Origin: an uncultured bacterium
Lineage (GTDB): Bacteria; Sysuimicrobiota; Sysuimicrobiia; Sysuimicrobiales; Sysuimicrobiaceae
NCBI GenBank assembly: GCA_938028835.1
Contig: CALIMJ010000013.1
Location: 128,320-192,319, forward strand
Direction: 5' to 3'
Length of the DNA stretch: 64,000 bases
Below are positions 50,534 to 54,219 of this stretch, piece by piece. Below the pieces are notes generated by a model. That model ran no database searches. It had not been told where the DNA came from and worked only from the letters and a program-made list of their open reading frames with translations. Numbering within the stretch: position 1 is the stretch's first letter; the number at the start of each line of letters is the position of its first letter. The position numbers were made by a program, and so were the translations under genes.

Positions 50534-50974
50534 ATGGCGGCGAACCGAGGGCTTCTGGCGGCGGACAAGCGGTACCTAGCGGGCGTGATCCACCAGGTGT
50601 GGCGGGCCTGCCAGGGCTTCGTCTCCGTGGTGATGGAGCGGGGGCCGGAGGATGCGTTCTTCGTGCTGGACGAGCTGGACGAGTGGGCGGCGGCGCAACG
50701 GCGCCGCCTGTCCGGAAGGACCGCTCGACGGCCGGCGGGGCTCTCCGCTCAGGGGTTGCGGGTGGCCCGGGAGCTGCTGGACGACGTGAGCACCTTCTGC
50801 TCCGCCATTGGGGACATGGTGGCCCGCCTCCGCGCCAGCCCCCTGAGCCCGGACGAGGTGGAGGAGGAGTGCCTGATGATCGTGGACGGGTTCGTCGCGT
50901 GGACCCACCGCATGGCAACGCAGCTGGGCCTGTCCCGCAACCTCCGGCCCCAGGTGATCTGGCCGCTGCGCTAG
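50534..50974 (+). CDS. Hypothetical protein
   Basis: 146 aa; a GAGGAG SD lies upstream; no recognisable domain. Confidence 0.4.
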   Translation: MAANRGLLAADKRYLAGVIHQVWRACQGFVSVVMERGPEDAFFVLDELDEWAAAQRRRLSGRTARRPAGLSAQGLRVARELLDDVSTFCSAIGDMVARLRASPLSPDEVEEECLMIVDGFVAWTHRMATQLGLSRNLRPQVIWPLR

Positions 50975-51588
50975 TGGGTCCCGCGGACCTCCTGGGCGGG
51001 CCGGGTGGCCCGCTGGATCTGCTCGTCCGCGCGGTCCAGGAACTCCCGGCAGGCGGCCCGCACGGGCGGGGCGCCGTCGCACGCCACCTTGCGCACGAGC
51101 CAGCTCAGGTGATCGTACAGGTGCCACGCCTCGTCGTCCCGCAGCCGCGACTCGCGGGTCGCGAACTCCAGGAAGCCCTGGACCGCGGCCAACACCGCCC
51201 GGGCGTACTCCGCCGGGTCCAGCACGTACCGGCTGCCGTCCCGCGGGTCCTCCAGGTACACCCGTCCCTGCCGGTGCAGCACGGTCAGGTCGTGGTAGCC
51301 GCAGCAGTCCATCCCGCAATCCGCCAGGAATAGGGGCGAAGCGTAGGGGTCGCTGGGGTCGGTGACCGCGTGGTGGTCAGCCAGGAGGGTGAGCAGCAGG
51401 CCCTGCACGCCCTCGAACAGCGCGTAGGCGGAGTAGGAGGCGTCGTGCGACGGAATGCCCAGGGCGCGGGCGCTCTCGCCGAGCAGCAGGAGAGGACGGC
51501 CGTCCACCTCCAGGGAGAACAGGCACGGGACGGCCTCCACGTCCTCGCCCGTGTCGGTGATCTCCAGCCGCGCCCGGATCCGGTTCAT
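50971..51588 (-). CDS. Hypothetical protein (downstream of terC on the same strand)
   Basis: 205 aa; AAAGAGAGGG SD; no recognisable domain; contains a CGMDCCGYHD Cys/His cluster. Confidence 0.45.
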   Translation of the reverse strand: MNRIRARLEITDTGEDVEAVPCLFSLEVDGRPLLLLGESARALGIPSHDASYSAYALFEGVQGLLLTLLADHHAVTDPSDPYASPLFLADCGMDCCGYHDLTVLHRQGRVYLEDPRDGSRYVLDPAEYARAVLAAVQGFLEFATRESRLRDDEAWHLYDHLSWLVRKVACDGAPPVRAACREFLDRADEQIQRATRPAQEVRGTH

Positions 51589-51630
51589 CCCTCTCTTTAT
51601 CTTACGCCCGCTCCGGAGGGCCGAGGGTTG

Positions 51631-52584
51631 TCAGGAACCCGCGGAAGCCTCGGGAGCCTCCTGAGCGGCTTCCTTGGGCGCGGGGATCAGCACGGAGGCC
51701 AGCACGCTGACCGCGAGGATGGCCGCCACCACCCCCAGGGACACACCGATCGGTACCTTGTAGAAGTCGGCCACGAGCATCTTCAGGCCGATGAACACCA
51801 GCACGAGCGACAGGCCGTACTTCAGGTAGCGGAACATGTCCATGATCCCCGCCAGCACGAAGAACAGGGCCCGGAGCCCTAGGATGGCGAAGATGTTGGA
51901 GGTGTACGCGGTGAACATGTGGTGGGTGATGGCCAGCACCGCGGGGATGGAGTCCACGGCGAACATCAGGTCGGTACTTTCGACCACCACCAGCACCAGG
52001 AACAGCGGCGTCACCCACAGCCGGCCCTCCCGCCGGACGAAAAAGCGGCCTCCCACGTACGTCTCCGTCACGGGGAACCGCCGCCGCACGGCCCGGAGCA
52101 CCGGGTTCTGGGAGGGGTCCACGGTCTCTTCCCGGTGCCGGAACAGCTTCCAGCCCGTGTACACCAGCAGGGCGCCGAAGAAGTACAGGACCCAATGGAA
52201 GAGCTTGACCAGGGTGACGCCCACGAGGATGAGACTGGCCCGCATGACCACGGCGCCGAGGACCCCCCAGAGGAGGACGCGGGGCTGCAGGTGGTCCGGG
52301 ACGGCGAAGTAGGAGAAGATGACGAGGAAGACGAAGAGGTTGTCCACGCTTAGGGCTTTCTCCACGAGGTACGCGGTGAGCCACTCAAGCCCGACCTGGG
52401 GGCCCTCCAGGGCCCACACCCCCGCGTTGAACAAAAGCGCCGCAGCGATCCACACCACGCTCCAGAGGGTGGCTTCCCGCATGGACAGCCTGTGGGGTGT
52501 GCGCTGGAAAACCCCGAGGTCGATGGCCAGCATGGCGCCCACCACCACGTGGAAGACGATCCACAGCAGCACCTCGACGTTCAT
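51631..52584 (-). CDS. terC: TerC/Alx-family integral membrane protein
   Basis: KALSVDNLFVFLVIF and repeated TerC TM motifs; 317 aa. Confidence 0.9.
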   Translation of the reverse strand: MNVEVLLWIVFHVVVGAMLAIDLGVFQRTPHRLSMREATLWSVVWIAAALLFNAGVWALEGPQVGLEWLTAYLVEKALSVDNLFVFLVIFSYFAVPDHLQPRVLLWGVLGAVVMRASLILVGVTLVKLFHWVLYFFGALLVYTGWKLFRHREETVDPSQNPVLRAVRRRFPVTETYVGGRFFVRREGRLWVTPLFLVLVVVESTDLMFAVDSIPAVLAITHHMFTAYTSNIFAILGLRALFFVLAGIMDMFRYLKYGLSLVLVFIGLKMLVADFYKVPIGVSLGVVAAILAVSVLASVLIPAPKEAAQEAPEASAGS

Positions 52585-52605
52585 CCGTCTCCCCCGTGTC
52601 CCCTG

Positions 52606-52642
52606 TCAAAACGAAAAACCTCCGGTGCCCGCCGGAGGTCTC
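52606..52642 (-). terminator. Intrinsic terminator hairpin with U-tract in the terC leader (expression platform)
   Basis: The minus-strand RNA reads CCUCCGG-CGGGCA-CCGGAGG followed by UUUUUCGUUUU, about 25 nt before the terC ATG. Confidence 0.6.
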
Positions 52643-52644
52643 AC

Positions 52645-52780
52645 CGTGAGGCATCGCCACAGGCCCGACCGGGCGAACCGCCTGCTAGCGTCCGCCGGAC
52701 TGACGACCGGGCCGCGGCCGCGCGTCAACTGTTCACGGCCGCCAGTTACTCCCCTCAGCCCCGCCCCGTGCGGGGCCACC
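52645..52780 (-). promoter_or_regulatory. Candidate yybP-ykoY (Mn2+) riboswitch aptamer
   Basis: The leader contains GAGGGGAGUAAC, matching the conserved GGGGAGUA loop of the yybP-ykoY motif; it is followed by a terminator; it lies upstream of a TerC/Alx gene, the classic regulated target. Confidence 0.45.
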
Positions 52781-52839
52781 AACACCATACGGACGCCCCC
52801 ACCAGGGGTCAAGCCCGCGCAGGGCTGGGGAGGCGGGCG

Positions 52840-54219
52840 GTGAGAGCCCCCCGCGCGGTGGCGGCGGTCCTGCTGGCCGCGGGAGAGGGCAAGCGGATGC
52901 GCTCCCGCCTGCCTAAGGTCCTGCACCCAGTGGGCGGCCGGCCCATGGTGCTGCGGGTCCTCGACGCGCTGCGGCGGGTGGCGGCGGGGCCGGTGGTCGT
53001 GGTGGTGGGCCACGGGGCAGACGCGGTCTGTCGCGTGCTGCCCACAGACGTGCGGGTGGCGTGGCAGGAGGTACCCAGGGGTACCGGGGACGCGGTGCGC
53101 TGCGCGCTGCAGCACCTGGAGGGCCACCGGGGCCCCGTGCTGGTGGCCTACGGCGACACCCCGCTGGTGGGCGAGGAGACCTTCCTCCGCCTGGTGGAAG
53201 CGCACGTGGAGGGCGGGTTTGCGGCCACGCTGCTCACCGCGGTGGTGGACGCCCCGGACGGGCTGGGGAGGGTGGTGCGGGATGTGGACGGGTCGTTCCT
53301 GCGGGTGGTGGAGGAGGCGGACTGCACGCCCGAACAGCGCCAGCTCCGCGAGGTGAACATGGGGCTGTGCTGCTTCGAGGCGGAGGACCTGCAGGAAGCC
53401 CTGGCGCACCTGACGCCGCAGAACGCGCAGGGCGAGTACTACCTCACGGACGCTTTCGGGTGGCTAGCGGCCCGAGGGCGGAAGGTGGGGACGGTCCGGG
53501 CCAGGGAGGTGACAGAGGTCATGGGCGTGAACTCGCGGAGGGAACTGGCGGCCGCGGAGGAGGAGCTGCGCCGGAGGACCCTGCAACGGCTGATGGACTC
53601 CGGCGTCACCGTGCTGGACCCGCACACCACCTACGTGGCGCCCGACGTGCAGGTGGGCAGCGACACGGTCCTGCTGCCCTTCACGGTGCTGGAGGCGGGC
53701 ACGGTGGTGGGCTGCGGGTGCACGGTGGGCCCCGGGGCACACGTGCGTGGCTCCCGCATCGGGGACCGGGTCCGCATCCTGTGGTCGGTGGTGGAGGACA
53801 GCGAGGTGGCCGAGGAGTGCCGCATCGGCCCGTACGCACACCTGCGGCCCGGCACACGGCTGGCCCCCCGGGTGGTGGTGGGCAACTTCGCGGAGATCAA
53901 GAACTCCACCGTGGGCGAGGGCACCAAGGTCCAGCACGTGTCCTATCTCGGTGACGCCACCGTAGGCCGGGAGGTGAACATCGGTGCGGGGACCATCACG
54001 TGCAACTTCAAGTACGGGGTCCCCGGCAAGCACCCCACGGTGATCGAGGATGGAGCGTTCATCGGCAGCGACACTTTGCTGAACGCACCCGTGCGGGTGG
54101 GCGCGGGCGCGGTGACGGGGGCAGGCTCCGTGGTCACCAAAGACATCCCGCCGGGGATGGTGGCGGTGGGCGTGCCCGCGCGGGTGGTCCGGCGGGCGAA
54201 GCAGGAGGACAACCCGTGA
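52840..54219 (+). CDS. glmU: Bifunctional GlmU (UDP-GlcNAc pyrophosphorylase / GlcN-1-P acetyltransferase)
   Basis: LAAGEGKRMRSRLPKVLH nucleotidyltransferase motif; C-terminal left-handed beta-helix hexapeptide repeats; the start is GTG 52840 or 52858. Confidence 0.9.
   Translation: MRAPRAVAAVLLAAGEGKRMRSRLPKVLHPVGGRPMVLRVLDALRRVAAGPVVVVVGHGADAVCRVLPTDVRVAWQEVPRGTGDAVRCALQHLEGHRGPVLVAYGDTPLVGEETFLRLVEAHVEGGFAATLLTAVVDAPDGLGRVVRDVDGSFLRVVEEADCTPEQRQLREVNMGLCCFEAEDLQEALAHLTPQNAQGEYYLTDAFGWLAARGRKVGTVRAREVTEVMGVNSRRELAAAEEELRRRTLQRLMDSGVTVLDPHTTYVAPDVQVGSDTVLLPFTVLEAGTVVGCGCTVGPGAHVRGSRIGDRVRILWSVVEDSEVAEECRIGPYAHLRPGTRLAPRVVVGNFAEIKNSTVGEGTKVQHVSYLGDATVGREVNIGAGTITCNFKYGVPGKHPTVIEDGAFIGSDTLLNAPVRVGAGAVTGAGSVVTKDIPPGMVAVGVPARVVRRAKQEDNP

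Follow-up and report, generated by a model that had tools for sequence, protein, structure and literature searches.

Riboswitches of the yybP-ykoY class consist of two legs joined at a four-way junction. An adenosine of loop L1 makes a cross-helix A-minor contact, an invariant adenosine of loop L3 ligates Mn2+ through its N7, and helix P1.1 serves as a weak switch helix (PMC12153347, PMC6754395). In the published antitermination mechanism, Mn2+ stabilises P1.1 against strand invasion (PMC6754395). The terminator-type members are exemplified by the Xanthomonas oryzae aptamer, a four-way junction with docking L1 and L3 legs, in which the 3′ half of the weak P1.1 competes with a terminator and Mn2+ switches transcription on (PMC6754395, PMC11087558). 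In Escherichia coli, the mntP leader has the same four-way architecture with an A-first L3 (ACAUACU), regulates MntP and uses a translational platform (PMC12153347). The E. coli alx element, the "PRE" leader of the TerC-family Mn exporter Alx, lacks P2 and therefore forms a three-way junction; it carries an intrinsic termination site inside P4, acts at the level of translation and is coupled to pH (PMC12153347, PMC13594968). This alx-like subgroup, three-way and pH-coupled, has been reported as restricted to Enterobacterales (PMC12153347). A further cis-regulatory RNA upstream of terC, the "terC RNA" RF03067, is an unrelated single-hairpin motif of 59 nt.

Here we describe the leader of a terC gene in the window, a 64-kb stretch of DNA from an uncultured member of the phylum Sysuimicrobiota (CSP1-3). 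Its layout is that of the Xanthomonas oryzae type, from which it differs in its very high GC content (0.72), its longer P2 and P3.2, an A-U pair closing L1, an additional conserved 5′ hairpin adjoining P1.1, and its origin in Sysuimicrobiota. With mntP it shares the four-way junction and the L1 sequence, while L3, the regulated gene and the expression platform differ. The regulated protein belongs to the same subfamily as Alx (TIGR03718, R_switched_Alx). Like alx, the element has an L1 of the form GGAGUAA...UGAGACC with an A-U closing pair, a U-first L3 (UCAGUCC, against UCAUUAC in alx), and it is invisible to the Rfam model RF00080. Unlike alx, it has a full 9-bp P2 and thus a four-way junction; its P4 is short, and its terminator follows the aptamer. 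We therefore do not place it in the alx-like three-way-junction subgroup: its 9-bp P2 covaries, its six-pair P4 has no U-tract, and only the L1 and L3 variants are common to both. RF03067 is absent from the window in Rfam searches. It occurs at alphaproteobacterial terC genes (L067 2766-2824, L072 2874-2931, L077 2889-2949; 48-66 bits), where it replaces the Mn2+ riboswitch, so that genes of the terC family have leader RNAs of at least two unrelated kinds.

Genomic context of the terC leader

The leader lies on the minus strand in the 255-nt intergenic region between the divergent genes glmU and terC (52585-52839; Table 1). The GTG near 52840 on the plus strand is the start of glmU, a gene identity backed by Pfam. 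The terC product scores 407.7 bits against TIGR03718 (cutoff 246.4), and its ATG at 52584 begins 23 nt 3′ of the terminator U-tract. Genes for manganese homeostasis or export, encoding TerC/Alx, MntP or P-type ATPases, are the expected downstream partners of the class, and an Alx-type TerC is what the window holds.

The promoter-like site upstream of the leader is the sole site of its kind in 51400-53200, where 0.1 would be expected. Both of its hexamers are kept in five relatives (L001, L002, L004, L005 and L006) with varying flanks. Transcription of terC would accordingly start near 52777, at the foot of the conserved 5′ hairpin. On the opposite strand, the glmU start codon lies about 28 nt from the terC -35 box (52784-52845), so the glmU promoter and 5′ UTR must lie antisense to the terC leader and overlap with it; the plus strand yielded no sigma-70-like site.

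Table 1 Features of the terC leader and its operon, in window coordinates; paired strands are separated by a slash.
Feature	Position	Strand	Details
Putative sigma-70-like promoter	52784..52812	-	TTGACC (52812-52807), 17-nt spacer, TATGGT (52789-52784)
5′-proximal hairpin	52757..52777	-	GCCCCGC / GCGGGGC; adjoins P1.1 without spacer; predicted in folds
yybP-ykoY-class aptamer	52635..52756	-	122 nt; perfect four-way junction; covariance model and RNAalifold
P1.1	52756-52753 / 52638-52635	-	GAGG / CCUC; 4 bp
L1 5′ strand	52752-52746	-	GGAGUAA; A-minor adenosine equivalent at 52750
P1.2	52745-52743 / 52646-52644	-	
P2	52742-52714	-	9 bp, with covariation
P3.1	52713-52707 / 52668-52662	-	
L3	52706-52697	-	UCGUCAGUCC; invariant adenosine equivalent at 52701
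P3.2	52696-52672	-	
L3 3′ strand	52671-52669	-	CGG
P4	52661-52647	-	6 pairs, without U-tract
L1 3′ strand	52643-52639	-	UGAGA, within UGAGACC 52643-52637
Predicted intrinsic terminator (expression platform)	52608..52642	-	Stem GAGACCUCCGG / CCGGAGGUUUU; terminator scan; core CCUCCGG 52638-52632, loop CGGGCA 52631-52626, CCGGAGG 52625-52619; U-tract UUUUUCGUUUU 52618-52608, directly 3′ of the hairpin
Shine-Dalgarno-like site of terC	52589..52595	-	GGGGGAG before the ATG; read from sequence
terC/alx-type gene	51631..52584	-	317 aa; regulated gene; Pfam TerC PF03741, 4.1e-52
ORF205	50971..51588	-	205 aa; orphan, Cys-rich; CGMDCCGYHD motif; 42-nt gap after terC

Homology to validated Mn2+ riboswitches

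We gathered relatives of TerC from 80 genomes. The closest are Candidatus Sysuimicrobiota / Tepidifontimicrobium MAGs from hot springs, with TerC identities of 98% and 97%, and the leader is conserved in five of six close relatives. The exception is L003 (92% TerC identity): in the 3 kb preceding its terC, a search with the R2 model described below found no riboswitch element, and the gene of an 897-aa P-type cation ATPase, with the same orientation as terC, ends 240 nt before it (L003 1-3000).

A covariance model built from the six Sysuimicrobiota leaders only (R1) finds full-length matches on the terC strand in several other phyla, namely in the terC leaders of Thermoflexus L026 (41.1 bits, E=4e-7) and L027 (39.1 bits), Armatimonadota L030, Anaerolineae L035, and Pseudomonadota L059 and L044. 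With filters off, R1 also matches E. coli alx (19.4 bits, E about 0.01) and overlies the RF00080 site of mntP (12.4 bits). The reciprocal model R2 was built from nine sequences outside Sysuimicrobiota, alx included. On the 64-kb window it returns a single match, 52634-52756 on the minus strand, with 61.0 bits (E=9e-13) and a runner-up at 13.3 bits, a score that is not fully independent of the window's clade, as the training set was chosen and aligned with R1. Most training loci had, however, come up earlier in a selection based only on motifs from the literature. Over 570 kb, R2 gives 20 matches at E<=0.01, all on the strand of a downstream terC or mntP; among them are the six Sysuimicrobiota leaders, with 49-65 bits, and three more leaders of terC. 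It also recovers E. coli mntP, which was not in its training set, at 43.4 bits (E=1.4e-7). This recovery is independent and eases the dependence of R2 on R1. Judged from sequence and predicted structure together, the element is thus significantly homologous to validated members of the class.

The fold itself is conserved. RNAalifold on the six orthologous leaders independently predicts P1.2, P2, P3.1, P3.2 and P4, meeting as a perfect four-way junction. Within the clade, 95.4% of cells pair in the canonical register, compared with 35-46% when the structure is slid, and four pairs are compensatory. In an alignment of 20 sequences from several phyla, pairing reaches 95.5% of cells (31-47% slid) and compensatory double changes occur in 30 of 32 pairs, supporting all six helices, with counts somewhat inflated because the alignment was fitted to the structure of the model; none of 500 shuffles reaches any observed measure of pairing or covariation. 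At the level of secondary structure, the model therefore comprises the two legs of the class, P1.1-L1-P1.2-P2 and P3.2-L3-P3.1-P4, joined at the four-way junction. The preliminary description of this locus had named, as refuting its reading, a missing RF00080 match together with the lack of such a conserved junction in orthologous leaders; the RNAalifold structure and the reciprocal models linking the leader to alx and mntP contradict the second part. We assign the leader element to the yybP-ykoY class with high confidence.

Aptamer core and effector

On the minus strand, GAGGGGAGUAAC at 52756-52745 opens the aptamer. The conserved L1 of the class comprises a GGAGUA 5′ strand, a GAGA 3′ strand and the A-minor adenosine, and all three are found in the window as GGAGUAA, UGAGA and A52750. 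Within L3, the segment UCAGUCC (52703-52697) contains A52701, which aligns with A37 of alx and A50 of mntP. The L3 adenosine that ligates Mn2+ in the class is thus present in the window, where by homology it may make the same metal contact. The UGAGACC strand and the L3 loop, which the preliminary description did not mention, are more diagnostic than the L1-type box that it had singled out. A further covarying pair accounts for the GUAAC variant of the window: it is G-C in 12 of the aligned sequences, A-U in seven and G.U in one, the A-U form belonging to the six Sysuimicrobiota leaders and alx. In one of the relatives, L006 (2816-2948), the A-minor adenosine of L1 is changed from A to G and the second position of L3 from C to U, both positions being invariant in the other 19 sequences; these substitutions could reflect decay, altered specificity or an assembly error.

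The 5′-proximal hairpin is kept in the five riboswitch-bearing relatives, where its only changes are C-to-U wobbles. It might stack coaxially on the 4-bp P1.1 and reinforce it, or protect the 5′ end.

Homology and gene context point to Mn2+ as the ligand. The same fold could in principle answer to another or broader effector, chiefly a different soft divalent ion such as Fe2+, Co2+ or Cd2+, or give a pH- or temperature-tuned Mn2+ response as in alx. The U-first L3, as in alx and against the family consensus ACAUACU (PMC12153347), would fit such a reading, as would the GGAGUAA...UGAGA variant, which among the 20 sequences it shares with alx alone, and the hot-spring origin of the closest relatives. 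A U-first L3, however, occurs in 18 of the 20 elements across many phyla and is no special feature. The pH coupling of alx has been ascribed to a vestigial L2 triloop in its three-way junction (PMC13594968), whereas the window has a 9-bp P2 and a four-way junction. Moreover, conservation extends to every L1 residue and to the adenosine that ligates Mn, and the regulated gene is of the same subfamily as E. coli alx, which encodes a Mn exporter. We consider a different or retuned effector response improbable and retain Mn2+ as the likely ligand. Two points speak against the riboswitch model: P1.1 comprises just 4 bp in a bacterium with hot-spring MAGs as its close relatives, and the terC of the close relative L003 lacks the element.

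Terminator and proposed switching mechanism

The preliminary description had placed an L1-type box and a CCUCCGG/CCGGAGG hairpin with a U-tract in this region and read them as a Mn2+ riboswitch with a terminator platform upstream of terC. All of these elements are present, and the 61-bit R2 match, the four-way junction, the loops and the TIGR03718 assignment support its reading. The terminator hairpin has seven perfect pairs, six of them G-C, can be extended to 11, and alone reaches -18.8 kcal/mol. Its 5′ arm re-uses the 3′ strands of both L1 and P1.1, so that the CCUC of P1.1 is common to both helices and the 3′ half of P1.1 pairs alternatively with the expression platform; aptamer and terminator are mutually exclusive. 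In leader folds, the structure with the terminator has -93.0 kcal/mol and that with the aptamer enforced -80.7 kcal/mol. As the terminator fold is more stable by 12.3 kcal/mol, the predicted default state is OFF. In the ligand-free minimum free energy fold, we also observed that a second CCUC, in the 3′ arm of P4 (52648-52651, minus strand), pairs with the 5′ GAGG of P1.1; it could serve as a decoy, keeping the switch strand occupied during terminator formation.

Most of the 20 elements have a comparable hairpin, whose start lies 0-6 nt into the strand formed by GAGACC and the 3′ half of P1.1. U-tracts come after it in the window's clade, Thermoflexus, Armatimonadota and L076; the leaders with such a tract include L001, L002, L005, L026, L027, L030, L036 and L076. 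In the gammaproteobacterial terC leaders and in alx the overlapping hairpin has no U-tract behind it, in keeping with their translational control. A genuine aptamer with a translational or mRNA-stability read-out, as in mntP or alx, and a hairpin and U-tract of structural role only, would agree with these leaders, with the translational mode of the E. coli members (PMC12153347), and with the position of the Shine-Dalgarno about 13 nt downstream of the U-tract. Against it, the hairpin followed by UUUUUCGUUUU has the features of an intrinsic terminator, the leader folds contain no structure that sequesters the terC Shine-Dalgarno, and the U-tract follows the equivalent hairpin in the eight leaders listed above. 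We give this translational or stability read-out only a slim chance.

Transcription termination is thus the preferred output, and we propose the following mechanism. RNA starting near 52777 would fold into the four-way junction, whose legs carry L1 (GGAGUAA...UGAGA) and L3 (UCAGUCC...CGG). At high Mn2+, L1 and L3 would dock around the metal with A52701 as a ligand, by homology with the solved members, and docking would stabilise the weak GAGG/CCUC helix. Since the P1.1 3′ strand also forms part of the terminator 5′ arm, a stable P1.1 would block strand invasion and prevent terminator formation, and the polymerase would read into terC and probably ORF205. At low Mn2+, the more stable terminator would form and transcription would stop at the U-tract. 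The direction of regulation, like the ligand, is suggested by homology and gene context. Taken as a full statement, the terC leader is likely a Mn2+-induced transcriptional ON switch of the yybP-ykoY class.

Detection by the Rfam model

The preliminary description had suggested a search with RF00080. This search (Rfam 15) gave no match to the window element, whether at the gathering threshold (45 bits), at E<=10 on 451 nt, or on 176 nt, where matches were listed down to 9.5 bits. We ran the accepted E. coli members as controls (sites L081 3462-3558 and L082 3299-3749). The mntP leader scores 41.6 bits, below the gathering threshold, in an alignment that ends before the 3′ GAGACC strand, and the alx leader, which has been studied by experiment, gives no match at E<=10. 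Because RF00080 also misses alx and leaves mntP below gathering, its negative result is uninformative for the window, and we take the gathering threshold, which excludes accepted members as well, to mark where the model falls short and not to define the class. Across all high-GC terC leaders tested, RF00080 gives no match or scores of 15.6-23.6 bits, well below the 45-bit cutoff. Its faint signals in the intermediates L030 (23.6 bits), L046 and L035, leaders from other phyla in which the motif is plain, coincide in position with the elements found by the covariance models. That the standard Rfam model misses the element is the sole mild surprise of an otherwise ordinary member of the class.

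The reading that no riboswitch exists here, and that the 5′ UTR is GC-rich and structured, carries a constitutive attenuator and matches the GGGGAGUA box by chance, is strongly disfavoured and very improbable: it would agree with the missing RF00080 match, with a full leader no more stable than shuffles (z=-1.09 and -0.96), a fold energy not unusual for its composition, and with GGGGAGTA alone, which is expected 1.37 times per 64-kb window and so carries no weight by itself, but it is opposed by a covariance-model match at E=9e-13 with no competitor in the window, by reciprocal matches to validated members, by six covarying helices with L1 and L3 conserved across phyla, and by the equally RF00080-negative bona fide alx. 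The two L1 boxes at riboswitch spacing (GGGGAGTA-N90-120-GAGACC) are expected 0.05 times in the window.

A cysteine-rich gene downstream of terC

The preliminary description had reported a 205-aa gene after terC, with its own Shine-Dalgarno and no intervening terminator, that might be co-regulated. The gene arrangement is confirmed: the ATG of ORF205 is preceded by AGAGAGGG, and the gap to terC contains neither a terminator nor a promoter. Co-regulation is plausible, in that ORF205 follows terC directly in all six relatives (L001-L006, 67-99.5% identity), and the gene is probably co-transcribed with terC. Its cysteine cluster, C-G-x-D-C-C-G-x-H-D, is invariant in the clade. ORF205 has no Pfam or NCBIfam match and belongs to a very rare family: the close clusters found number only 14, and among 1.8 billion representatives an index-free search returned just two remote full-length relatives, which have PLF...C...CCGY[H/E]D in common with it. 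Its structural model, of moderate quality (pLDDT 71.5), gave no fold match in the PDB. ORF205 is faced by a convergent 146-aa ORF on the plus strand (50534-50974), with a 4-nt overlap at the ORF205 stop codon; the segment 50400-51700, which includes the junction of these two ORFs, showed no terminator-like site.

Implications

This analysis extends a known riboswitch class to the uncultured phylum Sysuimicrobiota by a new member whose terminator platform is conventional. A Mn2+ riboswitch before a TerC/Alx exporter is textbook biology and was to be expected. The noteworthy points are methodological, in the blind spot of Rfam, and peripheral, in the orphan gene probably co-transcribed with terC. 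Owing to the blind spot of RF00080 in Rfam 15, genome annotations probably under-count the Mn2+ riboswitch. The GC-rich, compact four-way junction, with relatives among hot-spring MAGs, might suit structural work, and ORF205, flagged as a likely member of a Mn2+-responsive operon, offers a lead to its function.

A broader reading is tentative and, in our view, unlikely to hold in full. It takes the element as part of a coherent subclass of Mn2+ riboswitches missed by Rfam, combining a full four-way junction with an alx-like core (U-first L3 and an A-U pair closing L1). This subclass could be widespread before Alx-type terC genes in GC-rich and thermophilic phyla, its metal affinity adjusted to high temperature or pH. 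In the window, ORF205, with its conserved cysteine cluster C-x3-CCGY[H/E]D, would belong to the regulon. If this subclass reading were true, ORF205 could be a so far unrecognised manganese- or metal-handling partner of TerC.
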